A DNA stretch of 61,265 nt from a virus (lineage: Duplodnaviria > Caudoviricetes): the IMG/VR virus record IMGVR_UViG_3300032164_003159, positions 1 through 61,265 of that record. One strand, given 5' to 3'. The number at the start of each line of letters is the position of its first letter. The first letter of the stretch is position 1. The translations under genes were made by a program, and so were the position numbers. Below, piece by piece: positions 1 through 14,854 of this stretch. Below the pieces are notes generated by a model, which saw only the letters and a list, made by a program, of their open reading frames with translations, had not been told where the DNA came from and ran no database searches.

Positions 1-456
1 GCCCTTGTAGCCCTCCCACAAGCCCTCAGCGGCGTTGATCGTGTCAACCGGGTGCTCTGCCCTTTCCTTTTGTTCCTTGGCCAGCCACGCGGGCAGCGGC
101 ACGTTTTCGGTTTGCTCCAAGGACCATACGCTATAGTAACGAAACACGGGGATGCGATCCACGTCGCCGTGCGCATCGGTTTTGTTAAACGTGGTATAGA
201 ACGTGATCATTTGGCTCTTTTTGAATTCGGAATCCTTGATCCTTCCCCCGACCGCATGCGCCTGTTTGAGCGTGATCCATGGTCCAGGGCGACCCGACAA
301 AAGGGTCAAGAAAATGTTGATCCCCCTGTACTCGTTGCCCTTGTAGTTCTTGCAGGACGTGTTACTCGCATTCCACGGTTTGCACCAGGGCAACAGGTTA
401 TCATTCTCGATTGCCTTGACGATCTGGTCTGTGACGATCTGGAATACCTTTGACAT
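1..456 (-). CDS. ardC: ArdC-like antirestriction / ssDNA-binding protein (runs off the window edge)
   Basis: Not in the ORF track; translated by hand from ATG at 456: MSKVFQIVTDQIVKAIENDNLLPWCKPW...YRGINIF...WITLKQA...GG...FRYYSVWSLEQ, the ArdC/DUF1738 N-terminal pattern. AACCGGGAGG leader upstream. Confidence 0.85.
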   Translation of the reverse strand, partial: MSKVFQIVTDQIVKAIENDNLLPWCKPWNASNTSCKNYKGNEYRGINIFLTLLSGRPGPWITLKQAHAVGGRIKDSEFKKSQMITFYTTFNKTDAHGDVDRIPVFRYYSVWSLEQTENVPLPAWLAKEQKERAEHPVDTINAAEGLWEGYKG

Positions 457-461
457 TGTAA

Positions 462-523
462 CCTCCCGGTTTGGTTTTCGTTCTAATCTATAAACAAGGT
501 GCGTCGTGTTTGGTATTTGTCAA
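462..523 (-). repeat. 62-bp leader repeat, copy 1 (copy 2 at 1343-1404)
   Basis: cctcccggtttggttttcgttctaatctataaacaaggtg...tttgtcaa; 3 mismatches to the second copy. The two copies flank the sigma gene. Confidence 0.9.
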
Positions 524-527
524 GAGG

Positions 528-1337
528 TTATATTCTATCGTGCGCCATTTCCGCGATCCTGGCGCGAAGGGACACTTCGATCTGTTGAATCCGTTGCCTG
601 GAAACCCCGCCGAGCGTTTGACCGATAACGTCAAGGGTATCCGGTTCGGGGTTAGCGATCCTGCGATTGAAAACCACGGCCTCGCGGGGGTTAAGGGTCT
701 GCTCGAATTCGGCCATGATCCCTAACATCCAAGCTCCGTCAAGCTTGCTTGACGTGTACTCTTCCGGCGTCGGGCAGTCCGAAGCTAGCGCATCGTGTAA
801 GGTCCGCCCGTTGCCTAGCGCGCTGGAATCGAGGACCGGCGCATCAAGGGATCGCTCCGGGCTTGCCATACGCTCAATCATTTGCAGCACGTCCTTTTCT
901 CGCACCTTGCACCGATCCGCGATAGCGTCGGGGGCCGCGTCGCCGCGTTCTGCTAGAAGCTTGCTCGTCTCACGGTGCAAGCGGAAAAACAATTTCCGTT
1001 GGGCTTGCGTTGTGCCGATCTTCACCAGGGAATAATCCGCGATAGCACGGGCAAGAACGAAAGCGCGCGCCCACCACTGAGCATAGGTGCTAAACTTGAC
1101 GTTGCGCGCCGGGTCGAACCGATTCGCTGCTTCGATCACACCGGCCAGTCCCTCTTGAAATAAATCTTCGCGGTTGGTTCGGTCGTATCCGTACACGATT
1201 GCCAATTTCTGGCATAGCTTGATCTGCCCTTCGATCATGGTATCACGGGCGCGCTTGTCCGTTGCCATGTGCGCGCCTAGCTCTGCCTGCTCTTCGGTCG
1301 ATAGCACCTTGGAATTCTTGATAATGGATGCTAACAT
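528..1337 (-). CDS. Sigma-70 family sigma factor, RpoH/sigma32-like
   Basis: Region 2 DLFQEG..G...A..RFDP..VKFSTYA.WW; RpoH-box-like VKIGTTQAQRKLFFRL; region 4 TL..IG..LGGVSRQRIQQIE. Confidence 0.9.
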   Translation of the reverse strand: MLASIIKNSKVLSTEEQAELGAHMATDKRARDTMIEGQIKLCQKLAIVYGYDRTNREDLFQEGLAGVIEAANRFDPARNVKFSTYAQWWARAFVLARAIADYSLVKIGTTQAQRKLFFRLHRETSKLLAERGDAAPDAIADRCKVREKDVLQMIERMASPERSLDAPVLDSSALGNGRTLHDALASDCPTPEEYTSSKLDGAWMLGIMAEFEQTLNPREAVVFNRRIANPEPDTLDVIGQTLGGVSRQRIQQIEVSLRARIAEMAHDRI

Positions 1338-1342
1338 AGTAT

Positions 1343-1404
1343 CCTCCCGGTTTGGTTTTCGTTCTAATCTATAAACAAGGTGTGTCGTGTTTAGTCTTTG
1401 TCAA
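1343..1404 (-). repeat. 62-bp leader repeat, copy 2
   Basis: Near-identical to 462-523. Confidence 0.9.
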
Positions 1405-1484
1405 TAGGGGCAGATACATTTGTTTACGATCTGCCCCTGTAATATGCTATCCTTTAGATAATGAACATCGCAAAGAGATTAGAT

Positions 1485-1547
1485 TGAGGGCGCTCGCGGA
1501 ATCGAACCGCGATATTAGCAGGGGTTGAGCCCCAATCCAGCCCGCCC
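1485..1547 (-). ncRNA. tRNA-like element (T-arm present, D-arm absent)
   Basis: Minus strand GGGCG...GGGG-CTCAA-CCCC...CGCGG-TTCGATT-CCGCG-AG-CGCCC-TCA: canonical T-arm and a closing GGGCG/CGCCC stem. Confidence 0.45.
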
Positions 1548-1554
1548 ATAATGC

Positions 1555-1752
1555 CTAGTCCGGGATCAATTCGTTAACCGCGCTCTGAACGTCACGGGTT
1601 AACACGGCCAGCGCGATATTGTGCGGATCGGGGAGCGGGGTTTTCTTGCTGGCCGATACCAAAAACCACCCGCCAACCGGCTTGATCGTTACCGTGTAGC
1701 TTCCACCGGACGATTCAACCTCGAAAGTCTTGATTGCGCTGGAATTGATCAT
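1555..1752 (-). CDS. Hypothetical protein (start moved to MINSS)
   Basis: AACCGGGAGGCAAT leader immediately before ATG at 1752. Confidence 0.7.
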   Translation of the reverse strand: MINSSAIKTFEVESSGGSYTVTIKPVGGWFLVSASKKTPLPDPHNIALAVLTRDVQSAVNELIPD

Positions 1753-1860
1753 ATTGCCTCCCGGTTCTTTGCTTGTTACTATAAACAAGGTGGATCCGAT
1801 CTATAAAAATGTAAAGGGCCGACGCGAAAATAGATAAAGATATATTTCTACAAATTGCCC

Positions 1861-1902
1861 TTGACAAAACTAAGGATCGTGCTTAAATTGAATAGTAAGG
1901 GG
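1861..1902 (+). promoter_or_regulatory. Class B promoter-like repeat (TTGACA-N16-17-TAAATT...GTAAGGGG)
   Basis: Same motif at 3991, 7158, 10267, 11690 and 12909 (+), with related copies at about 6451-6492 and 2325-2365 (-). Confidence 0.7.
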
Positions 1903-1950
1903 ACTAGACTAAAACAGGCATTTGACAATCGGCGGATCGTACATATAATG

Positions 1951-1978
1951 AAAACAGGCGGACCGTTCGATCCGCCTG
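1951..1978 (-). terminator. Intrinsic terminator
   Basis: CAGGCGGA-TCGAACGG-TCCGCCTG followed by TTTT on the minus strand, downstream of ORF 2001-2225. Confidence 0.7.
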
Positions 1979-2000
1979 CACCACCTTTCCTGCCCGTCTG

Positions 2001-2225
2001 CTAGTAGTTCCCTGTATCCGTATTCATGAAGTCTTCGTCTTCCGCCGCCGCCTCGAACTCGGCGGAACAATGCTGGCCGCAGTCGGGGGTGTCGCAGTAA
2101 AGCGCGCCGGTCTTGTAACGGAATGCGCGCTCACCCTTCTTGATCTCGCACTCGCAACGGTGACACTTGCTGCCCGAATACTTGACTTTGATCCAATAAG
2201 GGTCGCCCGCGTATCTGGTTGACAT
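2001..2225 (-). CDS. Small Cys-rich (zinc-finger-like) protein
   Basis: CxxC and CxxxxC motifs; cassette promoter and leader upstream. Confidence 0.7.
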   Translation of the reverse strand: MSTRYAGDPYWIKVKYSGSKCHRCECEIKKGERAFRYKTGALYCDTPDCGQHCSAEFEAAAEDEDFMNTDTGNY

Positions 2226-2374
2226 GGTTTCCTCCCGGTTTGTGGTACAGATATATTATAAGGCCTGGTTTTTGTTTGTAAAGAAAAAAAGGAGAAAAAG
2301 TACAGTGTTGATTTATTCCGCTTCGCCAACATTTAGAAATTTGTGCATTATTTCTAAATTGTCAAGACAATATC

Positions 2375-2453
2375 AAAAATAAAATGGGCCTGCCGCCTAG
2401 TTGCCTTGGTTCAACCGGGAGGAAGAATACCAAGGTACTTTTGCGGCAAGCCC
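2375..2453 (-). ncRNA. Long 3' hairpin whose loop shows CCUCCCGGUU (antisense to the shared leader)
   Basis: GGGCTTGCCGC..CCTTGGT-ATTCTT-CCTCCCGGTT-GA-ACCAAGG..GCGGCAGGCCC followed by ATTTTATTTTT. Confidence 0.55.
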
Positions 2454-2458
2454 TATCG

Positions 2459-2695
2459 TTATACGATCTGCCAGTGTCCATCCTTGCGTATCTTCATCCC
2501 CCAGGTGCAGGGGTAGGTAATCTTTCCGTCCTTCCAGTACTCTTCCACGATTGCCATTGTCTCGCCCGTAACTGTCCCGGCGTCTAGCGCATTCATCGCC
2601 ACCCGTTCAAGGTTGGCTTTCAATTCGGTCACTGACACGCCGTTGGGATCAATTGCCACGTCAAAGATCAGTCGCAGGTGCTTTGTTTTGCTCAT
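2459..2695 (-). CDS. Hypothetical protein
   Basis: AAGGAG RBS; coupled to the upstream ORF. Confidence 0.7.
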   Translation of the reverse strand: MSKTKHLRLIFDVAIDPNGVSVTELKANLERVAMNALDAGTVTGETMAIVEEYWKDGKITYPCTWGMKIRKDGHWQIV

Positions 2696-2697
2696 AG

Positions 2698-3015
2698 TTA
2701 GTTCTCCTTGATCACATCGCTGAACTTCGCGGGCTTGAAGTAAAGATCCCGTTCGATTCCGATTCCCATGTGCTTGACACTCTCAAGCTCGGCCATGCTA
2801 AACTCGCCCCACTCGTCACAGCCGGGGCCTAGTCCGCAAACGTAGCCGAAGAAAATCCGCTCTTCCGGGTTGTACTCGGCCCCGTACCACGTCATGCAAG
2901 AGTAAGGATGAAAGAACTTGACTACCAGAACCTTGTCGGCCAGCTTGACTTCTTCGGTTGAATACAGCTTCGGAAGTTTGGCCAGGATCTCTTTGGTAAG
3001 CAGCTTCATCGGCAT
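2698..3015 (-). CDS. DUF2958-like protein
   Basis: LLTKE...KLPKLY...VVKFFHP...TWY..E...FFGYV...EWGEFS..ELE...IERDLYF pattern. Confidence 0.75.
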   Translation of the reverse strand: MPMKLLTKEILAKLPKLYSTEEVKLADKVLVVKFFHPYSCMTWYGAEYNPEERIFFGYVCGLGPGCDEWGEFSMAELESVKHMGIGIERDLYFKPAKFSDVIKEN

Positions 3016-3065
3016 GGTTTGTTCCTCCCGGTTACAATACTATTATAGGCACGGTGCGCAGGATG

Positions 3066-3428
3066 TCAAGGAAGCCGTTCGAGGGTGTCGATCAGAATAC
3101 GGGCGGCGGTGAAATCGTTGCCCGCGACGGCCTCGCTTAAGCACACCTTCAAGCTCATGCGCAGCTTGTCTCGGTTCCCCCCGCCTTCTACCTTTAGGAA
3201 GGTATCGAAGGCTGCCATCGGTTGGAAGTTCGCATCGGGGTTGTTATGCTCGAAGATTACCCAACCGCTCGCCCGCAGACTGTCAATGATGTCCTTAGCA
3301 TCCTTCAGTCCGAAGCCAACGGATTCGCGCAGCGCCTTGATCAACTTGATCATAGGCAGTCCGGGATGATCCGGGTCGAAAAAGATTTGATCCTGTAGCT
3401 TAGTCAACGACAATTGCACTGTGCTCAT
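3066..3428 (-). CDS. Protein with a ribosomal L7/L12 C-terminal-like motif
   Basis: IKLIKALRESVGFGLKDAKDIID resembles KxxVIKxVRxxTGLGLKEAKxxVE; start at MSTVQ after GGAGG. Confidence 0.6.
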   Translation of the reverse strand: MSTVQLSLTKLQDQIFFDPDHPGLPMIKLIKALRESVGFGLKDAKDIIDSLRASGWVIFEHNNPDANFQPMAAFDTFLKVEGGGNRDKLRMSLKVCLSEAVAGNDFTAARILIDTLERLP

Positions 3429-3442
3429 GGTAGCCTCCGTAG

Positions 3443-3649
3443 TTATATTGGCCGGATCATTGTCGGGGTTGCCTTGCACCGAAGCAGGGCACGACCGATC
3501 AGGGTGATAAAGGTATTTCCGTTCTTGTTGCGCTTGATCGCTCCGATATCCCAGAGCACCGCATGGTCCGCCCGAGAGATCGCCGCGATGTCAAGCTTGT
3601 TATCCATCACATCGCGCAGCACTTTGCGGGCATTGTCCAACGTATTCAT
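3443..3649 (-). CDS. Hypothetical protein
   Basis: Cassette promoter and AACCGGGAGG leader. Confidence 0.7.
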   Translation of the reverse strand: MNTLDNARKVLRDVMDNKLDIAAISRADHAVLWDIGAIKRNKNGNTFITLIGRALLRCKATPTMIRPI

Positions 3650-3696
3650 GATTGCCTCCCGGTTACAAATACATTATATGTATTATCTTTAGTTTG

Positions 3697-3927
3697 TCAA
3701 GCGTCCTCATCTTCTAGCAGGAAAGGATCGATATCAGCCTCGGTCAGCTTCGGATCGGGCGTCACGACTAGCACGGCATCGAATTCTTCCGCGCTCTTTC
3801 GCAGGGTAAGCTCGGTAAGATCTTCGTAGAAGCACGCTTTCGCCCGGTGAATCATACCCGGCTTATCCAGGTCAACCGTATACTTGATTCCCAGCGTGAT
3901 CGTTCCCACGCGCCTTGACTTTGCCAT
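3697..3927 (-). CDS. Hypothetical protein (start MAKSRR); apparent paralog of 30391-30612
   Basis: Leader before ATG at 3927; shares G.I...I.Y.V.LD ... DPK..E.DI with 30391-30612. Confidence 0.7.
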   Translation of the reverse strand: MAKSRRVGTITLGIKYTVDLDKPGMIHRAKACFYEDLTELTLRKSAEEFDAVLVVTPDPKLTEADIDPFLLEDEDA

Positions 3928-4023
3928 GGTAGCCTCCCGGTTAGATATATTATAAGCACTATTGTAAACTTGTAAAGAGCACATTATCTCTTGACAAAAA
4001 CCAGTTAGTGCTTAAATTACTAT
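3925..4023. repeat. About 99-bp back-to-back promoter repeat, copy 1 (copy 2 at 11624-11722)
   Basis: catggtagcctcccggttagatatattataagca...cttgtaaagag.acattatctcttgacaaaaaccagttagtgcttaaattactat, near-identical at both sites. Confidence 0.9.
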
Positions 4024-4061
4024 AGTAAGAGGACCGACCTTTTAACTAACCAGCACCAACG

Positions 4062-4086
4062 AAAACGCCGCCCCGAAGGGCGGCGT
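4062..4086 (-). terminator. Intrinsic terminator
   Basis: ACGCCGCCC-TTCG-GGGCGGCGT followed by TTT on the minus strand. Confidence 0.8.
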
Positions 4087-4201
4087 CAATCAATCCCAAT
4101 CATTACATGTTCGCAAGGGTAAACAATCGAGTCAAGGATGCGAGCATTTAGTTAGCACATTGGTAATTGTCACCGCCTTTCTAGTCTAGCTGTCCATACG
4201 A

Positions 4202-4306
4202 TGACGGGCACACTTGCTAACTCACTGCCCGGCCTTGCCAGGAATACCTTACGCTCGCCCTGCAAGCTTCGCGGTCCGGGGGTGTAGTCCGTCCGCGTTC
4301 CCGTCA
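4202..4306 (-). ncRNA. Candidate structured ncRNA (family member 1)
   Basis: Starts just after TTGACA-N16-TATAAT with no RBS; ends TGACGGGAACGC/GTGTGCCCGTCA pair; shares CGGACTACA with 11759-11916. Confidence 0.55.
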
Positions 4307-4312
4307 AGTTTA

Positions 4313-6343
4313 TTATAAGGTTGATCCGTCGGTTGTCAATCCCTTGACCGCCGCGATCACCGCTTCCCCAATCTGCCCGTGGTACTTTGGAAGGATGCGC
4401 CGGGCTAACCAGCATTCACCGTCCGTCAAATCGCGGTTCATAGACTTAGCTGCAAGCTGCCGGCCGATCCGCGTATCCATTCGGTTGAAGCCCTCCCCAT
4501 CCTGTTTATGCGCTCCATCGCACATGCCAGCAAGTATCTGTAAACCAGTCGCACAAGCCTCGCGCTGTGCCGCAGTCGCCTTCGGATACTTGGAAGCGGG
4601 CATGGGAAGGGTTGCCGGGTCCGCGTTGACTGTAGCCGGCGTGGGCAGCGCCCGTTGTGTATCTAGCGCTTGTTCGATAATGTATTGCTTCCAGACCAGG
4701 ATATGGGCCAGCTTAGCATCGAGGGAACCGTCAACAACTAGGTGTTGAATCGTAACGTTATCGTGCTGGCCGATCCTGTGACAACGATCTTCCGCTTGCG
4801 TCACGTTACCGGGAACCCAATCAAGTTCAGCGAAAACAACGTGCGACGCGGCGGTCAACGTGATTCCAACCCCGGCCGCTTGAATCGAGCCGATGAAAAC
4901 CTTGACGCGCGGGTCGCTCTGGAATCGATCAACCGCGCTTTGGCGATCTTCCGGAGTATTCTCCCCGGTCAAGACAACCGCGCTCGCACCATAATGTTCG
5001 GTTAGTGCGGATATGACATCGTGGTGGTGCGCAAAAATCACCAGCTTATCCACGCCGCCCTCTAGCACTTCGTCACAATGCTCGATCACGGCGGGCACCT
5101 TGGCAACGGCTAACCTGTGCCGGGCCGCACTCATTTCCGAGAATGCGATCTTGATATGTGAGTCTAGCCGGGCAACCGCCGCGCTATAAGCTTCCACGTC
5201 GCCCGATGCGAGGGCAAGTTCAGCGTCCGCGTGCGCTTCGTCCAGGTTGCCTTCCCATTCCGAGAACTCTAATTGCTCTGCCTTGACATCATTGGCCAGG
5301 CCGTTCTGGCTTAACAGGATCACGCTTCGAGTCTTCGGGGGAAGTTCCTTCAATACGTCCACCTTCAACCGGCGGACCATGATCGAAGCGCGCAAGCGGG
5401 TTTGTAATTCGTCTAGGTTGGATGCGCCTGTGAAATCCCAACCATACTTGGTTTGAAAAGCGGAACAATACCGCTTGGCAAAGGCAAAGAAATTGCCAAA
5501 CATTTTGGGAGCGATTGCGCCGGCTATCGGTTGCAGTTCCACCGTCCTGTTAAGGATCGGTGTGCCGGTCAACATCAGCTTGTTTGTGGCCTTGGAAATC
5601 AGACCAGGCACGCTTCCCTTTGCCTTCCGGTCGTAATAGCCTAGCACTCGGCGGGTCCGTTGCGCCTCGGGATTCTTTACCTTGTGGCATTCATCGATCA
5701 CGATCAAATCCCACTGGCGCGCCATCAGCGAATCAAAAACGTGGTTCTTAACCCGGTCGTAGTTCACGATCACAATGTTCGCTGTGCTAACGTCCACCTC
5801 GTTGGAATCTACCAGGGCGAAGGTTAGCGCCTTATCGGTCAACCATTTTTGCGCTTCCCGTAGCCAATTCAGCCGGAGGGACGCGGGCACAATGATCAGA
5901 ATGTTCTTATAGCCTTTCAGGTTGATCAAGCCAAGCGCCTGGATGGTCTTGCCAAGGCCCATTTCATCCGCGATCAACGTACCATCGCGCTCCGCCGCGT
6001 AGGCAATCCCGGCCTTCTGGAATCCGAGATAAGCTAGACCATCGGGCACAGGGATATTGATCTCAGCGTCCGCCGCCCGCGATCCGTTCAAGCTCTTGAT
6101 GGTTGGCTGTAGGCTTTCCTTGGTTGCTTCGTCGGTGGAATACTGCACTAGCCTTGCAGCGGACTCGGCCTTGAACGTCCACCACTTCATCCGCACGCCG
6201 GCCGCACAAGCCTTGCAACCCTGGAACCTGCAACCGCCCGGCTGTTGATGCCACCAGAACCCGGCGGCTTTCAGCGTATCCTTATCAGAGAACGCGGATT
6301 CGGCTATCCAGATCATGTGCTCACTGTTGAAGCTTATCCGCAT
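4313..6343 (-). CDS. SNF2/SWI2 (SMARCAL1/HARP-like) helicase/annealing ATPase
   Basis: IADEMGLGKT, DECH, LTGTP, GVGITLTAA, QAEDRCHRIGQ. Confidence 0.93.
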   Translation of the reverse strand: MRISFNSEHMIWIAESAFSDKDTLKAAGFWWHQQPGGCRFQGCKACAAGVRMKWWTFKAESAARLVQYSTDEATKESLQPTIKSLNGSRAADAEINIPVPDGLAYLGFQKAGIAYAAERDGTLIADEMGLGKTIQALGLINLKGYKNILIIVPASLRLNWLREAQKWLTDKALTFALVDSNEVDVSTANIVIVNYDRVKNHVFDSLMARQWDLIVIDECHKVKNPEAQRTRRVLGYYDRKAKGSVPGLISKATNKLMLTGTPILNRTVELQPIAGAIAPKMFGNFFAFAKRYCSAFQTKYGWDFTGASNLDELQTRLRASIMVRRLKVDVLKELPPKTRSVILLSQNGLANDVKAEQLEFSEWEGNLDEAHADAELALASGDVEAYSAAVARLDSHIKIAFSEMSAARHRLAVAKVPAVIEHCDEVLEGGVDKLVIFAHHHDVISALTEHYGASAVVLTGENTPEDRQSAVDRFQSDPRVKVFIGSIQAAGVGITLTAASHVVFAELDWVPGNVTQAEDRCHRIGQHDNVTIQHLVVDGSLDAKLAHILVWKQYIIEQALDTQRALPTPATVNADPATLPMPASKYPKATAAQREACATGLQILAGMCDGAHKQDGEGFNRMDTRIGRQLAAKSMNRDLTDGECWLARRILPKYHGQIGEAVIAAVKGLTTDGSTL

Positions 6344-6564
6344 GGGTGCCTCCCGGTCAGATACATTATGTGTATGATGTTTAGCTTGTCAAGAATGTAA
6401 ACGGTTTGTTGACGTGTAAACGAAAGGGTTACACCTGTTTAGCAACCGCTCCCCCAACATTTATAATTTAAGCACGATTGCATGTTTGTCAAGGCATTAT
6501 TTCAAATTAAATAGAAATAGTGGGACCGGGCGCTGTACCCCGATCCCACCGGGAGGAGCTTGTA

Positions 6565-7002
6565 CTAGGCCGGCTGCACCGTGGAAGCGCCCACCAGTTC
6601 CATGCTCAAATCGGTCGTCACCTTGCCCGAGCAATTGACGATCCGCTCGGCCACCTTCTTGACCTTGGCGATCCGGTTTTCCACCGACCGCTTCAGATCG
6701 TCGGCCAACTCCGCCTGTGCCTCGGGATTGTCCATGGCGGCGATGAATTCCTCCGTCACCACGTTCTGGGTTTCCTTGTTCAGCTTGTTGGCGAACAGGC
6801 AGGCGAGAAGCTTCCAATCCACCGTGATCTTGTCGCTCACCGTCTGGGTGTAGTCCTCGCCCTTCTTGATCAGGCCGAGGATGCGGACGAGCAGATCGAT
6901 CTTGTACTCGCCCGGCGCGACCTCTTTGCTCGCCGCGCTCGCCGCCTTGTCCTTCACCACCTTTGCGACTGCCAGGATTGCCTCGTTCGGGAACGTTTTC
7001 AT
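6565..7002 (-). CDS. Hypothetical protein, strongly GC3-biased
   Basis: Own promoter, variant leader AACCGGAGGAG, followed by a hairpin at 6520-6549. Confidence 0.8.
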   Translation of the reverse strand: MKTFPNEAILAVAKVVKDKAASAASKEVAPGEYKIDLLVRILGLIKKGEDYTQTVSDKITVDWKLLACLFANKLNKETQNVVTEEFIAAMDNPEAQAELADDLKRSVENRIAKVKKVAERIVNCSGKVTTDLSMELVGASTVQPA

Positions 7003-7293
7003 TTGCTCTCCTCCGGTTTGGGTTTGTCCTACCCTTTCATTATAAGCACTAGCCCTGACATGTCAACCGCGCTTGTGTTATTTTCATCGGCGCGCTTGCA
7101 CATATATTATAGATACTTGCACGAAAAAGTAAAGCAATAAAAAGCTTGATTCTGCCCTTGACAAGTTTAGTTTAGTGCTTAAATTACTATGTAAGGGGAG
7201 CGTGTGAAAACTAGGTGCTTTTCGGGGCTTTACTTAGCGCCCGCTCGTTCTTATAATGTATACGAAGGATTGCGCGGTATATACTTTGGCGGG

Positions 7294-7665
7294 TTAGCGC
7301 TTCTCGGAAATGTGTCCTTGTGGCTTGTTATGCAAGAACGCCTCTGCGGAACTCCAGTAGGTATTGCACGCAGCGCAGGCGATATGGATCAGATCCTCGT
7401 CGTAGCAATCCTCCGTCTCAAGCCGCGTATCTATACCATCCTCGTCGATGTTTGTCACAATGTAGTCCACATGCTTGTCGAAGGCGGCCCAGATAGTTCC
7501 ACGCGCCCCGCACCTCGTACACTTTAGTGGGGTAACTGCGCAGAATGGACACTTCTCCGAAGGTAACCATTTCTGGTTAGGCTTCTTTTCCGGATAGATA
7601 ATCTCACGCTTGCACTCCTTGCACCTGACCGTATACTTGTCCTCGGTTTCTCTGCGCTGACTCAT
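7294..7665 (-). CDS. Multi-CxxC zinc-binding protein
   Basis: Four CxxC motifs; cassette leader. Confidence 0.7.
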   Translation of the reverse strand: MSQRRETEDKYTVRCKECKREIIYPEKKPNQKWLPSEKCPFCAVTPLKCTRCGARGTIWAAFDKHVDYIVTNIDEDGIDTRLETEDCYDEDLIHIACAACNTYWSSAEAFLHNKPQGHISEKR

Positions 7666-7731
7666 TTTCCACCTCCCGGTTATTTACATTATAAATACGT
7701 TTTGGTTTTTGTAAAGCCGCTTAGGTACGTA

Positions 7732-7863
7732 TGCGCTCGGAGCCGCTTTGCCGCCTGTTCCCCTTGCCCTTTTTGCGGCAGGCGGTCTTATTAGCCTCCC
7801 GCTTGTGATCCCTGTGCCTGCCTGCTTTGCGGCAGAGTCCGGGGATCGCGTAGGGGTTGCGCA
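7732..7863 (-). ncRNA. Candidate multi-stem intergenic RNA
   Basis: TGCGC/GCGCA closing stem; GATCCC/GGGATC, CTGCC/GGCAG and CCGCCTG/CAGGCGG stems; TGCCGCAAA twice. Confidence 0.35.
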
Positions 7864-7865
7864 CT

Positions 7866-8102
7866 TTACTCCGTTTTCTCATTCAACACCTTCGGATCTT
7901 TCCTCGGCCACTTCCCCTGCAACTGCCCGCATTCCAGGCAGACCTTGATCTCTACGTAATCCCCGAAGCCCTCGTCACCGATCCCGCAGTCGGTCGGCAC
8001 GTAGCCGTCGTGCTCCTTGTCACCCATCCGAACGAAGCACAGGTCAGAGCACTTCGCGGTCACGTCCAGCACTCTCTCACTCTTGCATTTCTGACAGGTC
8101 AT
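7866..8102 (-). CDS. Small zinc-ribbon protein
   Basis: CxxC motifs; cassette leader. Confidence 0.7.
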   Translation of the reverse strand: MTCQKCKSERVLDVTAKCSDLCFVRMGDKEHDGYVPTDCGIGDEGFGDYVEIKVCLECGQLQGKWPRKDPKVLNEKTE

Positions 8103-8160
8103 AGTATCCTCCCGGTTAGTGTTACAGAGATATTATAGGGCTAATGTTTAGTTTGTCAAG

Positions 8161-8718
8161 TTATCGCGGTGCTTTTATAACGCATGCGCACGCTTTGCCA
8201 AACTTCTGCGGAGGAAAACGATAGGAGTCCCACAGGTTGGGCAATCCTTTGATTAGGTAGGAAAGCTGGGCGTAGTCCAGCCCGCACTGAAACGTGCCGG
8301 TGCCTGTCAGGAAACCATCGGAGCATGCCTTCCACGGTTTACCATCGCGCTCGGCTCTGCGAGCGTGCTGCGAGACACACGAGATCGGGCGGGTGGCGAT
8401 GATTAGCCGGCCACCCGGCTTGACATGGGACCATGCCCGCCGCAACACGACGCTGCGGTCAACCGGGCGCAGGACGTTCAACACGTAGAACATTAGGACG
8501 GTGGGAAATGTTCCGCGAGGGAAGGCAGTGTAAACTGGATTGTTAGGGTCGTATCCAATTGCAGGAAATCCCCCGTAATTCAGCGTGTCAACATCCATGC
8601 CACGGCCACAACCGAAGTCCAGGATCGGGCTGTTGAGTAGCACAGGATTGGAAAGAAGTCCTTGCAGCGGCTTGCTCGGCTTCGTGCGCGCCATGGCCGT
8701 TAGCTTACTCTTGTCCAT
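8161..8718 (-). CDS. Class I SAM-dependent methyltransferase-like protein
   Basis: ILDFGCGRG.D, GYDP, YVLNV, KPGG.L.I. Confidence 0.8.
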   Translation of the reverse strand: MDKSKLTAMARTKPSKPLQGLLSNPVLLNSPILDFGCGRGMDVDTLNYGGFPAIGYDPNNPVYTAFPRGTFPTVLMFYVLNVLRPVDRSVVLRRAWSHVKPGGRLIIATRPISCVSQHARRAERDGKPWKACSDGFLTGTGTFQCGLDYAQLSYLIKGLPNLWDSYRFPPQKFGKACACVIKAPR

Positions 8719-8765
8719 GATCGCCTCCCGGTTACAAATACATTATGTGTATGATCTTTAGTTTG

Positions 8766-8966
8766 TCAAGCTTGCCCGAACAGTGTAACCGGACCGCACA
8801 GGATGGTCTTATAGTAGAAATCCAACGTCCGCCCGCCTAGGATCGCCGTTCGCTCTGACTCGAATCCTTTTGAAAACCCGTAGTAGTTCACTCGAAGGAT
8901 CAACGATGCAAGCATTACTTCTTGCTGGGTTGGTTCCGAAATCGGCTTTAGCTCTTGTGCGTACAT
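8766..8966 (-). CDS. Hypothetical protein (start MYAQEL)
   Basis: AAGGAG RBS and TTTACA...TATAAT promoter. Confidence 0.6.
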   Translation of the reverse strand: MYAQELKPISEPTQQEVMLASLILRVNYYGFSKGFESERTAILGGRTLDFYYKTILCGPVTLFGQA

Positions 8967-9010
8967 GGCGATCTCCTTCTGTTGTATTATAAGCACTCTT
9001 GTTGTAAATG

Positions 9011-9580
9011 TTAAGCCCTGGTGTGATTCTCGTTGCATTCCGGGCAGGAAGAGCCGATTACGTCCTTTACACACAACACTTGATGCGGCGTTGTCAATAT
9101 CCTTCTGGAGCACCGGAAGGTTCCAAAGCCGTTGACGCTAACCCGCAATGGGCGCACGGTTAACACTGTGAGCACTCGCCCGTCACTGAGCTTGAACATC
9201 TCACCGACCGTGACCTTGCGGTTGACCTGTGCGGCGTGTTTGCGCACTTCTCCCCGCCACTTCTCGTTTGTGTTGCCCGTGCCGTCCTCTTGAACCATAT
9301 CCAGGAACTTGATCGGGCAAGAGTAGTGACACGGCCCCATGGATTCTTCCATATCCTTGTAGCCCCATCCGAACGCTCCATTACTCCCCAGGATGTCACA
9401 CTCGATGAACCGCCCGACTTGATCCGTATCCTTGCGCGTCACTTCCCAAACGATCCACAAGATGTTACCCCGAACACACTTGGCCAAAGAGATCCCCTTG
9501 GCCACTTGGGTATGCCACTCCTTGCAACGATCTTGGATTAGGCTCTTCTTTGTCTCGCCGTGTGTAAACGTCCAGCCCAT
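9011..9580 (-). CDS. DUF6927-like protein
   Basis: MGW start; WGYKDMEESMGP..Y.CP...LD...WR motif. Confidence 0.6.
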   Translation of the reverse strand: MGWTFTHGETKKSLIQDRCKEWHTQVAKGISLAKCVRGNILWIVWEVTRKDTDQVGRFIECDILGSNGAFGWGYKDMEESMGPCHYSCPIKFLDMVQEDGTGNTNEKWRGEVRKHAAQVNRKVTVGEMFKLSDGRVLTVLTVRPLRVSVNGFGTFRCSRRILTTPHQVLCVKDVIGSSCPECNENHTRA

Positions 9581-9637
9581 GGTTCACCTCCCGGTTATCT
9601 ACACAACTATTATAGGACCGATCCTTGGCTTGTCAAA

Positions 9638-9708
9638 TGGGCCTGCTGTGAATCGAACACAGTCCTAACCGTTATGAGCGGCTGGCTCTACCTTTGAGCT
9701 ACAGGCCC
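9638..9708 (-). tRNA. tRNA with CAT anticodon (Ile2-like or Met)
   Basis: GGGCCTG TA GCTC AAAGGTA GAGC C AGCCG CTCATAA CGGTT AGGA CTGTG TTCGATT CACAG CAGGCCC A: full cloverleaf, no encoded CCA; acceptor stem resembles tRNA-Ile. Confidence 0.9.
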
Positions 9709-9713
9709 GATCT

Positions 9714-9944
9714 TTACTTGCCCTTGTCCCAATCCGGCCCGCTCATTACCTCGAACAGGTTGGTATCCACGTACACCCCGACGAAGGCGTTGCCCTTGTC
9801 GGTGCCCGCCTGCTGGCGCTCGTGTAGATCGCCTGCGGTGTCCTGCGCCTCTTCGATCATATCCTGCGGATCTTCAAGCGTCCAGCCGCGCTTCTTAAGG
9901 GCCGCTGCTTCCTTCTTTGTCACCAGTCCGAATAGATATGCCAT
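9714..9944 (-). CDS. Hypothetical protein
   Basis: Cassette promoter and leader. Confidence 0.7.
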   Translation of the reverse strand: MAYLFGLVTKKEAAALKKRGWTLEDPQDMIEEAQDTAGDLHERQQAGTDKGNAFVGVYVDTNLFEVMSGPDWDKGK

Positions 9945-9996
9945 GGTTTGCCTCCCGGTTATCTACACAACTATTATAGGCACGATCCGAAGCTTG

Positions 9997-10203
9997 TCAA
10001 TCTTCCGGCCACAGCACGAGGGCCGCTTGTTCCTTGGCAACGGAGCGCCGGAAACTTCCCAGCGTGCGCCGATTGATCTCGACCATGCACTCCGCGATGC
10101 CAGTCAATGGATTGAAGGCATTCCCTTCCGCGTCGATGGACAAAACCACTTCCAGATCCTGATCGAACTTCTTTAACACCTTAATCAAGTCTTTCACTTT
10201 CAT
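9997..10203 (-). CDS. Small phage protein (MKVKDLI..L...D.D.EV type)
   Basis: Cassette leader; common phage small-protein N-terminus. Confidence 0.7.
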   Translation of the reverse strand: MKVKDLIKVLKKFDQDLEVVLSIDAEGNAFNPLTGIAECMVEINRRTLGSFRRSVAKEQAALVLWPED

Positions 10204-10333
10204 GATTGCCTCCCAGTTAGATATATTATAGTTATAATCTATAGTTTGTCAAGTACAACTAATATCTTGACATTAGCTAAACGATGCTTAAATTACTATG
10301 TAAGGGGACTGCTTCCTTATCTATCCTCTTGGC

Positions 10334-10366
10334 AAAGAAAAACCCCCGGCCGAGGGCACCGGGGGT
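10334..10366 (-). terminator. Intrinsic terminator preceded by an anti-leader sequence
   Basis: ACCCCCGG-TGCCCTCGG-CCGGGGGT-TTTTCTTT, preceded by CATTGCCTCCCGG. Confidence 0.8.
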
Positions 10367-10379
10367 CCGGGAGGCAATG

Positions 10380-10832
10380 TTACGCCGCCGGGGTGGCGGT
10401 CTGCTCCGCCGGCTCGTCCTTCTTCTGCCGGGGGCCGTACTCCTCGCGCACACGCTTGAGGGTGGAAGAGAAGAAGCCCGCCTTGTCCACCTCGAACGTC
10501 ACGCTGAAGGCCACGGGGAACTCGCAGGCAGTCAACATCTCCTTGACGTCGCCGGTCTTGTTGAACAGCGCACCGACCGCCTTCTCCCACGCTTCCTTGC
10601 CCTTGTTGATGCGAGGCGTCTCGGAGCGGGGTATGACCACACGCTTCCCATATAGATATCCTGCCAGGTTGATCAACCCGGCCTCGATTGCCATGGCCTT
10701 GCGCTGCTCTTCCGGGATCTTGGCCAGCAACGCCTTCATCTGGGCCACGGGATCGTTCAGCACCTGCTCCACCGGATCGTTCTTCTTCGAATTGTCCTGC
10801 ACGTGGATCTTCTTGTTTTCCTTGTGGCGCAT
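10380..10832 (-). CDS. Hypothetical protein, GC3-biased; contains a 42-bp shared segment
   Basis: Variant leader AAACGGGAGG; N-terminus KKIHVQDN resembles KRIHVIDN of 23340-23720. Confidence 0.8.
   Translation of the reverse strand: MRHKENKKIHVQDNSKKNDPVEQVLNDPVAQMKALLAKIPEEQRKAMAIEAGLINLAGYLYGKRVVIPRSETPRINKGKEAWEKAVGALFNKTGDVKEMLTACEFPVAFSVTFEVDKAGFFSSTLKRVREEYGPRQKKDEPAEQTATPAA
10630..10671. repeat. 42-bp exact repeat, copy 1 (copy 2 at 14322-14363)
   Basis: ggtatgaccacacgcttcccatatagatatcctgccaggttg; both ORFs read NLAGYLYGKRVVIP here. Confidence 0.95.
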
Positions 10833-10911
10833 ATCAACCTCCCGTTTGGTTGGGCTTGATTGCCCATGTTCCTATTATAAGCACCGATACGATCTTGTCA
10901 ACCGAATCTTT

Positions 10912-11268
10912 TTACTTTCCCACTTGCTCGTCCCACTTGCCTGCGATCTTGACCGCCCATTCGTTCCGGGCATCGAAATCGTGCTTGCGGTATTCCCGGA
11001 AGAAATTCCACAGCATGTTGAAAAGTTCGCCTTGCAGGTAACGATGTTGAAAGTTCATGGCATCGGCTAGCGCCGTCCCGATCTCCTTGCCATCGCCGCC
11101 GTTCAGCGCATCGCACAGGCCTGCGACATGCTCCCTGGCGAACGATTCCAGACTCCCCTTTTGCACGGTTGCCTTGCACTCCGTACACACGTTCTGGACC
11201 TGGCCGCCGCCGGTCAGGTAGGCAGTTCCCAGACTTTCTTTTTCCTTGTGGCACCTGTAGCATTTCAT
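10912..11268 (-). CDS. Hypothetical protein with an N-terminal zinc finger
   Basis: Two CxxC motifs; cassette leader. Confidence 0.7.
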   Translation of the reverse strand: MKCYRCHKEKESLGTAYLTGGGQVQNVCTECKATVQKGSLESFAREHVAGLCDALNGGDGKEIGTALADAMNFQHRYLQGELFNMLWNFFREYRKHDFDARNEWAVKIAGKWDEQVGK

Positions 11269-11323
11269 TTTCGTTACCTCCCGGTTACGATCATTATATG
11301 TATCTATCGTTGCTTGTCAATCC

Positions 11324-11626
11324 TTAGCTGCGGTGTTTGAAGCAAAAGGAATAAGCATTCGAGAAGTCCACGGTGACCTCCGGCTTGCGCTGTACCATAT
11401 CGTCGATCTTGCTTGCGAACAGCACGGCAATCGGGTGATGGTTGATCCAATCGGTTCCCTTGCCCAACCGCCGGGCATCCTCGCACAGGATTGACATAAC
11501 CCGCGCGAAGGAATGGACCACGCCTGACAGGTTGCAAGCGTCCTGGATGATCAAAGCATCGCCGCAGAACTCTGACACACCGTCTGACACGTCGCCGTAT
11601 TCCTTTTCGGTCGCTTCAAGGTTCAT
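11324..11626 (-). CDS. Hypothetical protein (start MNLEAT)
   Basis: Leader before ATG at 11626. Confidence 0.7.
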   Translation of the reverse strand: MNLEATEKEYGDVSDGVSEFCGDALIIQDACNLSGVVHSFARVMSILCEDARRLGKGTDWINHHPIAVLFASKIDDMVQRKPEVTVDFSNAYSFCFKHRS

Positions 11627-11722
11627 GGTAGCCTCCCGGTTAGATATATTATAAGCATATAAATAAACTTGTAAAGAGTACATTATCTCTTGACAAAAAC
11701 CAGTTAGTGCTTAAATTACTAT
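11624..11722. repeat. About 99-bp back-to-back promoter repeat, copy 2
   Basis: Near-identical to 3925-4023. Confidence 0.9.
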
Positions 11723-11758
11723 GTAAGGGGAGCATGTGAAAATCAAAACTAAATAGAC

Positions 11759-11916
11759 TGGCATAGGCGAGGAGTCTCACCCGCTTGGGCTTTACCAGAA
11801 CTGGCCCATTTCTAATCCACGGTCAACCAAAGGCGCAGTGTTCTGGACCGTTCCTCCGTCGCACCGTGGGGCCGGGGCGCTGCGGTATCACCCGCTTGTA
11901 GTCCGGCTCTATGCCA
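11759..11916 (-). ncRNA. Candidate structured ncRNA (family member 2)
   Basis: Starts after TTGACA-N16-TATAAT with no RBS; TGGCATAG/CTATGCCA ends pair; CGGACTACA; CAAGCGGGTGA twice. Confidence 0.55.
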
Positions 11917-11953
11917 TTATTATTATAAGCACGATCTTTAGCTTGTCAATAGA

Positions 11954-12757
11954 TTAGTTCAACGGCTTGCCGGTTGCTCCACCGGGCAGATCGGAGTCCC
12001 TGTAGGCTTTCAGGTGGTTTTTCAACCAAACGTCAATCCGCGACGGCCCAAAGCAATGGTTACAGGTCCGGCATTGCCCGTGCTTAGCAGACACACGGCC
12101 ATGCGAATTGATAATCAGGTTCCACGTTTTCGGGCAGTAAACCATGTTCCCGGTCCGCTCCACCGGATGCAACCCCTTGGGATAGTCGGCCGGCGTGACA
12201 GAGCTTTCAAAGTACATGGTAGACCACCCATGGGCGATCAAGCGCGGGAACATGTGTGCGGTGTACGGATCAACCGATGCCTGGACGAAAGCATTCGGAA
12301 GGATCATAACGTGCCGCTCGATCAAGCGCACAAATTCAGCGTTCCAACCGTGAGACAACCCCGTGGTCCACCGACGGGTAGGAATCCAAAACTTAGTGGT
12401 AGGGTTTTCAAGCACCCAACCGGCCACCTTGTAAACATCCTCCGCCGTATGAAAGGGTTCCCCACGAGTACAGATCCGAACGCGGGCCAGCCCCTTGAAG
12501 GTTGCCGCCGTGATCCGATTCCAGCCTTGATCGTCAACCCCTCCCCGCGACCAGGCTTGACGGGTATACTTGTAAACTTGCGTTGACCGCTGGACGTAGC
12601 AATCGCGACAACCGGCCGTCCTGTGACAGGTCCAACCACCACGATCACAGGCCCAAAGACCGATGGATCCACACTGGCGCAATCCCAGGGCAACGCGGTT
12701 TTTCTTTGCCATCCCGCAAGAGCCGATAGCCGCCTCGCTAACGTGGTATGCCGTCAT
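11954..12757 (-). CDS. Phage Gp88-like Cys-rich (radical-SAM-like) protein
   Basis: C..TAGC..CY, VRI...GE, FWIPTR, ASVD, C-terminal CP...C..C..C pattern. Confidence 0.55.
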   Translation of the reverse strand: MTAYHVSEAAIGSCGMAKKNRVALGLRQCGSIGLWACDRGGWTCHRTAGCRDCYVQRSTQVYKYTRQAWSRGGVDDQGWNRITAATFKGLARVRICTRGEPFHTAEDVYKVAGWVLENPTTKFWIPTRRWTTGLSHGWNAEFVRLIERHVMILPNAFVQASVDPYTAHMFPRLIAHGWSTMYFESSVTPADYPKGLHPVERTGNMVYCPKTWNLIINSHGRVSAKHGQCRTCNHCFGPSRIDVWLKNHLKAYRDSDLPGGATGKPLN

Positions 12758-12796
12758 TTTAGCCTCCCGGTTACCAGATCATTATATGTATGATCT

Positions 12797-12832
12797 TTAG
12801 CTTGTCAATCGAAGTTTGAATCGTTCGGCCAT
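12797..12832 (-). CDS. 11-aa mini-ORF cassette (MAERFKLRLTS)
   Basis: TAGACA-N17-TATAAT promoter and GCGGGAGG RBS; the ORF runs into the next cassette's -35 box. Confidence 0.35.
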   Translation of the reverse strand: MAERFKLRLTS

Positions 12833-13524
12833 GGTATCCTCCCGCGTTATCCTTATTATAGCAATCTTATATCGGTTGTCTAGATATAAAGATAATATAA
12901 AAATCGACTTGACAAAACTAAACTAATGCTTAAATTACTATGTAAGGGGACTGATATACGAAAAACAGCCCACTATTCCAAAATGGTGAAAAATACCTTA
13001 TTTACAAATATAAGGATCGTGCGCAAGATAAACGGGCAAGGTCTGGCCAACGGTTGAAAAGGTTGCCGGGAGGCGACCGAAAGCGGGCCTAGTCTGCTCG
13101 AAGCACGAGCGGGCAAGGAGAACGTGTATATTGCTCCAGCACGCCGCCAATCGGTTACAGCCCCCGGTTAGCTATAATAGCGAGGTAGGGCGCTATTATA
13201 AGTATAAACTAATCAATTCCCGGCCAGGATCTGGTTTACAACGGGGGCTACCAGGGGTCCTTTTTACGGGTGGTTATGCCCGTAGTGCTATTCCTGTGGG
13301 GCTTATCTTAACGGTATCGGTAACCGGTGTAGATGTGTTATACGTCTCTCCGTACCCTTCTACGTATCCTGGGCTCCTCTATCCTGTTCCTTTACGTTTA
13401 TCCCCTTCCCTTGTGTCCTTCGATATAACGTGCGCATCCTTACTTATTTATATCCATTCCCCCGCTCAACATTATTTAGTTTTAGATATTTATCTTTATA
13501 TAATAAAGGGATATAAGTACCTCG

Positions 13525-13632
13525 CTGCCGCTTTAACGGCAGGGGATATATGGGTATCTTATAAAAGGATACCTTTTGGTTATTCCTTATACATGGTTGT
13601 ACGTTTCACCGCTCCTGCCGCTTTTACGGCAG
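13525..13632. repeat. 18-bp hairpin repeat CTGCCG-CTTT(A/T)A-CGGCAG (13525-13542, 13615-13632; third copy 14656-14673)
   Basis: Three copies read directly; two lie in AT-rich DNA lacking a minus-strand gene. Confidence 0.8.
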
Positions 13633-13726
13633 TTGATGGGGTGAAATGGCTAATTGTCTTGCGTTTGCTTCCGGATAGATACTTATGTTTATATATAGAT
13701 AATTTATATTGGGGCTATGTTATGGC

Positions 13727-14854
13727 TTATTGCGCTCCCGGTTCCTCAAAATCTTCTGGGGTGAGTTCTAGCTTTCTACTGGCCTTCGTTGGCTTCTTGT
13801 CTCGTTTGGTTGTTCTGTGTTGCTTGGCCTTTCTGACTCTACTGGTGAATTGGAGCACGTCCCTTACATACTTCTTCCAGTCCTTTGGTTCTACCCCAGT
13901 TCCGTCTCTCCATCCGCAATACCTACAGGGTTTAGTCCTGGTTACATCCTGCACTCCTGTTTTATGGCACGCTGGACAGGGATCTGCTTTTAGGGAGTCC
14001 TCTAGAATCTTTTGCGCCTGTTTGTGCTTGGTGATCTTCTTCGGCTGCATGTCGTTATATATTGCCATTGCTTCTTCCGGTGCTCTCGCATATGGTTTAA
14101 TCAGTGTTGGATCGAATTTCCCAGCTTTACTACTCCCCCAAACGCGCCGCAGGGTTTTTCTAACGAATTCATTCCAATTCCAAGGTAGTATTCCGATCCC
14201 AGCCTTATACCGGCACGCTGCGCAGGGATTGAACTTGGTCACTGTGCGGGTGTTCTCATATCCACACGCTGGGCAATTGAGCCGGTTTGCTTGATGTCTT
14301 GCCTTGGCTTCTTCGTATACCGGTATGACCACACGCTTCCCATATAGATATCCTGCCAGGTTGTCTTGATCCTGCACGAACCTCGCTACTGTTTTAGCCT
14401 GCTGGGTGTGCTTTCCAGGCTTTGCTTGCTTCCTGGGCTTCCTGGTGGCTTTTGGCGGCGGTCCCTTTGGCCATTCACTATCCTCCAAGATAGCCATTTT
14501 CTTTGGCTTCCCTCTAACTTGATCTACCGCTTCCAGGAATGGATTTGGCTGTCTTTCAGCGCCGCACAGGAAATCTGGTCCAAGCGGTTTTTCAGTATGC
14601 GCTACTTCTTTATCATAATCATATTTAGTTGTTTTTTTCGAAGCTTCATATGCAGCTGCCGCTTTAACGGCAGTTAGGACATTGGTTATTCCTATTAGGA
14701 CTGTTCTTATATCCGTTGCCTGGGCAAAGAACCACACGCTTCCCATATCCTTCACGTGCGGATCCCGGCTCATGGCCACCTTGTGAAGCTCAATCAGTAT
14801 CTTGCTCTGCAGCTTAGCCAGATCTTCCAGGTAATCTATCTGCGCGGTGTTCAT
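13727..14854 (-). CDS. Basic protein with duplicated CPAC..C..C zinc-ribbon domains
   Basis: CPACGY...PCAAC...NW..FVR and CPACHK...PCRYC...DW..YVR internal repeat. Confidence 0.75.
   Translation of the reverse strand: MNTAQIDYLEDLAKLQSKILIELHKVAMSRDPHVKDMGSVWFFAQATDIRTVLIGITNVLTAVKAAAAYEASKKTTKYDYDKEVAHTEKPLGPDFLCGAERQPNPFLEAVDQVRGKPKKMAILEDSEWPKGPPPKATRKPRKQAKPGKHTQQAKTVARFVQDQDNLAGYLYGKRVVIPVYEEAKARHQANRLNCPACGYENTRTVTKFNPCAACRYKAGIGILPWNWNEFVRKTLRRVWGSSKAGKFDPTLIKPYARAPEEAMAIYNDMQPKKITKHKQAQKILEDSLKADPCPACHKTGVQDVTRTKPCRYCGWRDGTGVEPKDWKKYVRDVLQFTSRVRKAKQHRTTKRDKKPTKASRKLELTPEDFEEPGAQ

Follow-up and report, generated by a model that had tools for sequence, protein, structure and literature searches.

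In the icaR mRNA of Staphylococcus aureus, the sequence UCCCCUG in the 3′ untranslated region (UTR) is reported to pair with the same mRNA's Shine-Dalgarno (SD) region (PMC3868564). In the hbs mRNA of Bacillus subtilis, a 14-base-pair (bp) interaction between 5′ and 3′ UTR is described as modulating RNase Y cleavage of the leader and protecting the mRNA (PMC5737220), and in the same organism Gill et al. (2025) found that anti-SD (aSD)-like 8-mers 467 nucleotides (nt) downstream pair with the SD, shorten the half-life and cut translation, that an aSD-like 12-mer beyond 500 nt still lowered protein by 44%, and that natural genes are depleted of aSD-like sequences (PMC12697547). Here we analyse a stretch of 61,265 nt, referred to as the window, which constitutes an IMG/VR record of an uncultured sediment phage, classed as a provirus and estimated to be 21% complete. 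Three of its early transcription units close in intrinsic terminators that carry, just behind the last stop codon, the complement of a leader shared by most early genes. A preliminary description had pointed to these complements; the observation is real, lies far above chance, and places the motif exposed on the sense RNA at the terminators. By analogy, the arrangement would extend 5′-3′ UTR pairing of the icaR type in a new form.

Measured against these reports, the phage elements share with icaR a C-rich anti-SD motif in the 3′ UTR opposite an SD in the 5′ region, for which blocked initiation and faster decay would be the expected outcome; a complement to the own SD region is indeed found, with 6-7 bp for the own variant leaders described below and 12 bp at site 1. 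They differ in that they lie 0-37 nt past the stop codon at a terminator, whereas the icaR motif lies in a long 3′ UTR, and in that they complement the 10-nt leader of ~16 genes, at three terminators, whereas the icaR motif belongs to one mRNA; moreover, the phage motif has no known link to RNase III. The B. subtilis constructs resemble them in having a pyrimidine-rich SD complement hundreds of nt downstream, but are engineered substitutions in coding sequence (PMC12697547), whereas the phage motifs are natural, non-coding and conserved, which suggests use rather than avoidance. With hbs they would share long-range pairing between the UTRs of a short, highly expressed mRNA, although the hbs interaction, as described, is not anti-SD. 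NarS and CpxQ are reportedly small RNAs (sRNAs) derived from 3′ UTRs. To such RNAs, and to C-rich ones, the phage motifs are similar in exposing a seed beside or in a terminator hairpin that is complementary to ribosome-binding regions; the difference is that the target would be the phage's own regulon. RsaE is a C-rich, SD-targeting sRNA of Firmicutes (PMC2790875), and a stand-alone sRNA of this kind is not what we find at the three sites, where the motifs follow the stop codons of conserved open reading frames (ORFs) by 1-37 nt with no promoter in between. In phage T4, the endoribonuclease RegB, acting via GGAG, and the repressor RegA are reported to shut down early mRNAs globally and post-transcriptionally (PMC3014915); the likeness is one of logic only, that is, early shut-down through a feature of translation initiation regions, since RegB and RegA are proteins, while the effector proposed for the phage would be RNA complementarity within mRNAs. 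A literature search, conducted mostly at the level of titles and with supplements outside its scope, returned no description of a shared phage leader with terminator-proximal complements.

All long ORFs of the window lie on the minus strand. Its first ~13,000 nt are an early-type region made up of small genes, of which the recognisable ones encode an ArdC-N protein, a member of the sigma-70 family (528..1337), a DUF2958 protein and an SNF2 helicase. A regular-expression scan identified 18 minus-strand cassettes in this region, laid out as TTGACA, 16 nt, TATAAT, in most cases 6-14 nt, AACCGGGAGG, 5-7 nt and ATG, and a promoter scan yielded 56 promoter-like sites, compared to 12.5 expected. A start of transcription ~7 nt past the -10 box would put the leader at the 5′ end of the mRNA or a few bases from it. 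The shared leader set (462..12772, minus strand) comprises 16 exact copies of the core CCGGGAGG, 15 of them within an exact AACCGGGAGG, each 5-7 nt before a start codon; thus 16 of 23 early start sites have the exact core, bearing out the earlier statement that most early genes share it. In the entire window, CCGGGAGG occurs 21 times, 17 times on the minus (gene) strand and four times on the plus strand, while dinucleotide shuffles contain it 1.17 times on average and at most four times, both strands together. The plus-strand copies start at 2415, 6549, 10367 and 13066; the first three constitute the reported sites and read CCUCCCGG on the sense RNA, and the longer AACCGGGAGG, present 15 times on the minus strand, occurs once on the plus strand, at 2413. 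In front of the three leftmost genes (ArdC-N, the sigma factor and 1555..1752), a third upstream box, CACCTTGTTTATAG, is found at 501, 1382 and 1792 (minus strand) instead of a TATAAT promoter, and may mark a different promoter class.

At site 1, the anti-leader UUCCUCCCGGUU (2411..2422, minus strand, as are all features of the three sites) is complementary in 12 of 12 positions to AACCGGGAGGAA in the leaders of 2698..3015 and 2001..2225, the former being the leader of the last promoter in the site's own unit. It occupies the apical loop of a long hairpin (2386-2453) within an intrinsic terminator (2372..2453); the hairpin folds with -39.5 kcal/mol (z = -4.95; 0/200 shuffles fold as well) and is followed by the U-tract AUUUUAUUUUU. 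The gene before it (2459..2695, 78 amino acids (aa)) is the last in the unit of the promoters at 3976, 3700 and 3069. At site 2, CUCCUCCCGGU (6548..6558) begins 8 nt past the TAG stop of a 145-aa gene (6565..7002), which has the variant leader AAACCGGAGGAG behind a 5′ hairpin; its CCUCCC is unpaired, and with its final GGU, which supplies three base pairs, begins the 12-bp stem of the terminator (stem 6550-6519; terminator 6505..6550), whose tail is U-rich. At site 3, AUUGCCUCCCGG (10367..10378) begins 1 nt past the TAA stop of a 150-aa gene (10380..10832) with the variant leader AAACGGGAGG, and abuts and enters the terminator hairpin (10368-10340), an 11-bp stem followed by UUUUUCUUU (terminator 10330..10368). 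It matches the leaders of 1555..1752 and 3443..3649 in 12 of 12 positions; this match and the variant leaders before sites 2 and 3 had been noted in the preliminary description and are as given there. A terminator scan recovered the terminators of sites 2 and 3, and all three sites fold as a hairpin with a U-tract, as expected of intrinsic terminators. No strong terminator was found between the gene 7294..7665 and the promoter at 7066, and the motif-bearing terminators therefore probably close nested sets of three, ~8 and three promoters, so that most transcripts ending at the sites would begin with the canonical leader. The three genes preceding the sites match no Pfam or PHROG family, the predicted structures of the 145-aa and 150-aa proteins (mean predicted local distance difference test scores 46.9 and 42.0) were too poor for a fold search, and an Rfam search of 1-13800 assigned no family to the motifs, returning only tRNA at gathering score and a scrap of ryfA (E-value 0.73).

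A first-order Markov model of the sense strand of 1-13000 predicts 0.2 copies of CCUCCCGG, and three are present. The shorter CCUCC is rarer than expected (5 seen, 8.2 expected), with three of the five copies lying at the sites and only two elsewhere in a strand for which the whole-region expectation is 8.2; CCUCCC occurs three times, each time at a site. To allow for the C/G-rich make-up of terminators, we counted all 168 permutations of the 8-mer, and CCUCCCGG ranked first with its three copies, while 132 permutations had none. All three copies fall within the 322 nt that separate stop codons from terminator ends in five units, and in those 322 nt no other permutation occurs more than once. 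A custom terminator finder, which missed sites 1 and 3 and produced many doubtful hits, was not used as a control. These counts bear on the notion that no RNA pairing is involved and that the motifs are by-products of recombination among near-identical cassettes or of C/G-rich terminators. Cassettes do recombine: contigs of related strains join or replace them at shared promoter-leader sequences (10214/3940, 3069/3429 and 7868/8731), from which the early region appears to have been shuffled by recombination at leaders, and among the contigs of four runs, a roughly 90% relative in run X15 has 10214 joined to 3940 at a leader. A further resemblance to the motif is seen in ACCCCCGG, which forms the 5′ arm of the stem at site 3. 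The fourth reverse copy (13066..13073), overlooked when the three sites were first listed, reads CCUCCCGG on minus-strand RNA. It lies in non-coding DNA, upstream of the early region and ~120 nt downstream of a plus-strand element at 12909; the sequence around it folds no better than shuffles do (z -0.93), and a terminator context is not evident there, as a by-product would have it. Against such an origin stand the first rank among 168 sequences of the same composition, the lack of plus-strand genes that could be remnants of an inversion, and the cost that aSD-like sequences are expected to carry, judging from what the B. subtilis report describes (PMC12697547); together with the retention of the motif in a distant relative, these points make it an unlikely explanation.

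This relative, L030 (4.8 kb, GC content ~38%), encodes relatives of the window's 145-aa (34% identity), 150-aa (37%) and 189-aa (41%) proteins, and has three UAACCGGGAGG leaders behind promoters of the TTGACA/TGCTTATAAT type. Its orthologue of the 150-aa gene ends in a TAG stop that is directly followed by CCUCCCGG and then by a terminator with the hairpin GGGGAGUGGGGC, which is unrelated to that of the window. In the protein alignment, the L030 orthologue stops 11 residues (33 nt) earlier, and a DNA aligner places the two motifs in different columns; the motif thus tracks the stop codon and terminator rather than an ancestral alignment. We estimate that ~0.01 chance copies of CCUCCCGG would be expected on that strand of the contig at its base composition, so its recurrence at the orthologous 3′ UTR, with different flanks, hairpin and stop, is difficult to reconcile with a by-product. 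The orthologues of the 150-aa and 145-aa genes also have variant leaders, AACCAAGGGAGG and AAAAACGGGAGG, respectively; the latter's 3′ UTR lies beyond the end of the contig, leaving one site for comparison. The second relative, L034 (10.6 kb), has sites 1 and 2 unchanged, but is uninformative in this respect because it is 99.7% identical (29 mismatches in 8,627 nt). It carries one extra gene between those for the sigma factor and ArdC-N (8612-9170), with its own terminator, which has no anti-leader, and an antisense TAAATT element.

Our searches for further relatives returned little. Positions 1-13000 matched no GenBank phage in megablast, and viral contigs contained neither the 24-nt promoter box in exact form nor the promoter-leader pattern. 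The pattern occurs at 10 loci in genome contigs and 20 in metagenome contigs, among which only L034 and L030 are relatives, while the other 28 consist of a single cassette and show no protein match other than a weak 129-aa helicase match in L015. Scans of viral and genome contigs guided by proteins of the 150-aa and 145-aa families were without result, the L030-type 19-mer hit eight unrelated viral contigs, and a relaxed pattern hit one contig of an unrelated metagenome-assembled genome. In tblastn against cultured phages, the 145-aa protein had no match and the 189-aa protein distant matches only. Relatives of the SNF2 helicase (L009-L013) were considered as comparison genomes and rejected, as the architecture is absent from them. 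At the protein level, the 150-aa protein has relatives that are 88% and 80% identical (P0002 and P0003), and the 145-aa protein has eight homologues in the protein database; P0005-P0011, which belong to its family, are 41-62% identical. An identical 37-nt stretch is found at 10635-10671 and 14327-14363 (also at 14733), in frame within two different minus-strand ORFs; in the 150-aa protein it accounts for ~12 residues that neither the 88% nor the 80% relative has, an X15 contig skips 38 nt exactly there, and the stretch possibly represents an inserted repeat or small mobile element.

The complement of an SD-containing leader could in principle be read on the other strand, and the preliminary description had named ribosome-binding sites of plus-strand genes as what would speak against its proposal. 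The sites are not such ribosome-binding sites: neither at site 1 nor at site 2 does an ATG, GTG or TTG follow the motif at 4-12 nt on the plus strand; the ATG present at site 3 comes only 2 nt after GGAGG and is antisense to a conserved gene, and on the opposite strand of L030 there is no start codon. The region does contain a second, highly conserved family of promoter-like elements, cTTGACA-N16-TAAATT-ACTATGTAAGGGGAC, with six plus-strand copies in the first 13 kb (1861-1905, 3991-4035, 7158-7200, 10267-10315, 11690-11735 and 12909-12955), one minus-strand copy at 6492-6445, a diverged one at ~2368-2320, and one more in the extra segment of L034 (~9030-9120). The copies lie at boundaries between early transcription units, often back-to-back with a sense promoter, and most of them point antisense into the preceding terminator; the copy at 10267..10315 (plus strand) points into the site 3 terminator and would transcribe the complement of the site 3 UTR. 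One might therefore consider that the motifs serve the antisense transcripts of these promoters, or, as double-stranded DNA, a factor that binds the leader box. Such a promoter-like element lies upstream of both site 3 (~70 nt) and the 13066 copy (~120 nt), and site 3 has the ATG mentioned above, but sites 1 and 2 have no plus-strand promoter of the TAAATT class nearby, and the conserved ORFs are those of the minus strand. As L030 keeps the anti-leader on a contig with neither an ATG after it nor a TTGACA-N15-17-TAAATT antisense promoter, we consider a plus-strand or DNA-level role very improbable and treat the TAAATT family as a separate feature.

The function of the motifs is most likely to pair with the leader and its SD. 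When pieces of 26-36 nt around each site were combined with the 16 canonical leaders in RNAduplex, the energies, which are upper bounds on strength since the pieces include flanking stem bases, ranged from -21.9 to -30.0 kcal/mol for site 1, from -19.3 to -28.2 for site 2 and from -18.9 to -26.2 for site 3; two control 3′ UTRs combined with all 23 leaders gave -6.1 to -12.6 kcal/mol, except for two values of -16.4 and -20.6. Making the motif single-stranded costs 2.6-5.2 kcal/mol. One conceivable partner is the leader of the next gene, which lies 130-190 nt downstream at all three sites and is matched over 12 bp at site 1, 9 bp at site 2 and 12 bp including one G-U at site 3 (9997..10203; 11 of 12 positions plus the G-U); the motif would then mask this SD on read-through RNA and confine translation to mRNA from the gene's own promoter. 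However, the downstream leader is never the best partner, ranking 4, 3 and 9 of 23, and the next gene in L030 has no canonical leader (AGAGG only), which leaves such insulation against read-through extremely improbable.

Pairing in trans has more in its favour. The preliminary description had proposed that RNAs derived from the 3′ UTRs shut off the early regulon while sparing their own genes, and in its strict form this reading has sRNAs or full mRNAs silence the genes with canonical leaders but not the carriers of the motif. In keeping with it, the seed is accessible, beside a terminator hairpin or in its loop as in known sRNAs, complementary to all 16 canonical leaders with the duplex energies given above, and kept in L030. 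The genes directly upstream have variant leaders in the window as well as in L030, and the complement reaches the CCGG(UU) of the canonical leader, covering 12 nt of three leaders at site 3, which it does not do for the own variants: all four motifs, counting that of L030, keep the GG(UU) that matches CC(AA) of the canonical leader, while the own variant leaders have no CC of AACCGG. The flank AUUG of site 3 also matches the leaders of three genes outside its unit. Unpaired C-rich motifs that block an SD form a known class of sRNAs (PMC2790875). Against an exclusive action in trans, reading the sequence reveals no internal promoter for a short RNA before site 1, and transcripts from the upstream promoters of the same units carry canonical 5′ leaders, so that pairing in cis would compete. 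Above all, the own genes do not appear to be spared. We folded three monocistronic mRNAs of 457-538 nt (those of the 145-aa and 150-aa genes of the window and of the 150-aa orthologue in L030), and in each of the three minimum-energy folds CCUCC(C) pairs with the SD of that same mRNA (pair probabilities 0.86-0.97). Of the antisense proposal, the strong computed pairing with canonical leaders and the retention of the motif in L030 therefore stand, while the sparing of the own genes is contradicted, with the own SD predicted to be paired (P ~0.9) in 3/3 cases. We regard a purely trans mechanism as doubtful.

The alternative already entertained in the preliminary description, a fold-back in cis of the 3′ end onto the 5′ end, has no less support than the trans model, and the cis mode is at least as likely as the trans mode. 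Replacing the 8-mer lowered the opening energy of the SD by 1.6-2.9 kcal/mol, with ten shuffles of the 8-mer giving intermediate values. The flank CU of site 2 complements GGAGGAG, which among the leaders compared is present only in the site's own leader, and site 1 is complementary in 12 of 12 positions to the leader behind the promoter at 3069, the last in its unit, both of which favour cis. We favour the reading that the motifs are selected anti-leader or anti-SD elements that act first in cis and possibly in trans, and put our confidence in it at a little below even. The 5′-3′ complementarity in the 2001..2225 mRNA (7-9 bp, P ~0.99) was considered as further evidence and rejected, because by our own estimate its length is near chance and a single-nucleotide difference in the L034 leader (window position 2245) is uncompensated.

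Several points weigh against this preferred reading. The predicted gain in SD masking is modest, and the pair probabilities come from folding RNAs of ~500 nt, for which long-range predictions are unreliable and in which a sole CCUCCC pairs with the SD almost by construction. With their own leaders, the motifs of sites 2, 3 and L030 form 6-7 bp, compared to 8-12 bp with canonical leaders, and pairing over 8-12 bp with the latter is no requirement under pure selection in cis. Site 1 lies beyond nested folding, because pairing of its loop with the 5′ end would create a pseudoknot. Two clear early terminators, 1979-1954 and 4085-4066, have no motif. The relatives with DNA examined number two, L034 and L030, of which L030 covers a single site, and leader and anti-leader are identical in all three genomes, so that what we see is co-conservation and not covariation. 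Finally, none of the 15 sediment-metagenome runs listed as carrying the sequence is recorded as RNA.

If the motifs do act first in cis, the sequence of events could be as follows. The anti-leader elements, situated in 3′ UTRs at the intrinsic terminators that close three multi-promoter early units, would present a single-stranded motif to the 5′-proximal AACCGGGAGG, which contains the SD. Pairing would occur first within the same molecule, closing the 5′ end onto the 3′ end, and perhaps, once they are abundant, with other early mRNAs. With the SD hidden, fewer ribosomes would load and decay would probably be faster, rendering early expression self-limiting. In three of four cases only 0-8 nt separate the stop codon from the motif (0-37 nt over all four), so that a terminating ribosome would be expected to cover or melt the duplex, a further point in favour of cis; a well-translated mRNA would then stay open, while an idle one would close.

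The early region contains further features that stand apart from the motifs. An early 120-aa protein (3066-3428, minus strand) has a short match to the C-terminal domain of ribosomal protein L7/L12 (E 1.9e-5, just under the Pfam cut-off) and is possibly translation-related. Two tRNA genes lie within early units, at 1486-1556 and 9638-9708 (both minus strand), one a tRNA-Met and one tRNA-like with an undetermined anticodon and unscored by Rfam. Two stretches of ~200-250 nt, 4058-4312 and 11725-11920 (minus strand), have TTGACA-16-TATAAT promoters of their own (4339 and 11949) and CGGACUACA near the 5′ end, and contain no ORF; the first closes in a strong terminator, neither has an Rfam match, and their folds are weakly or no better than those of shuffles (z -2.31 and -0.96). 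Just beyond the early region, a perfect hairpin, CTGCCG-(C)TTTA/TTTT-(A)CGGCAG, is repeated at 13525-13542, 13615-13632 and 14656-14673, with two copies in AT-rich non-coding DNA and one inside an ORF. The body of the record contains a TnpB/Cas12f-like ORF with OrfB_IS605 and TNB domains (21258-22316, minus strand).

In a bolder form, which on the present sequence evidence we consider rather improbable, the complementarity would amount to an RNA switch for the entire regulon: as ~16 early mRNAs share the 10-nt leader, abundant mRNAs that end at the three terminators, or their 3′ fragments, would on accumulating titrate every leader, in trans and in cis alike, and shut down early translation, a process that could be modulated by terminating ribosomes and by antisense promoters pointing at the terminators. 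Such a switch, if true, would be an RNA-only counterpart of RegA and RegB in T4. If pairing of the motifs with the leader is real in any form, it would supply a compact, portable element for synthetic translation control, and would account for the conservation, between phages at 34-41% protein identity, of a 10-nt leader that exceeds the length an SD needs. The phage would then time or limit a class of early genes without a protein regulator, through the complement of their leader written into terminators, and 5′-3′ UTR pairing would extend from single bacterial mRNAs such as icaR and hbs to a viral regulon.

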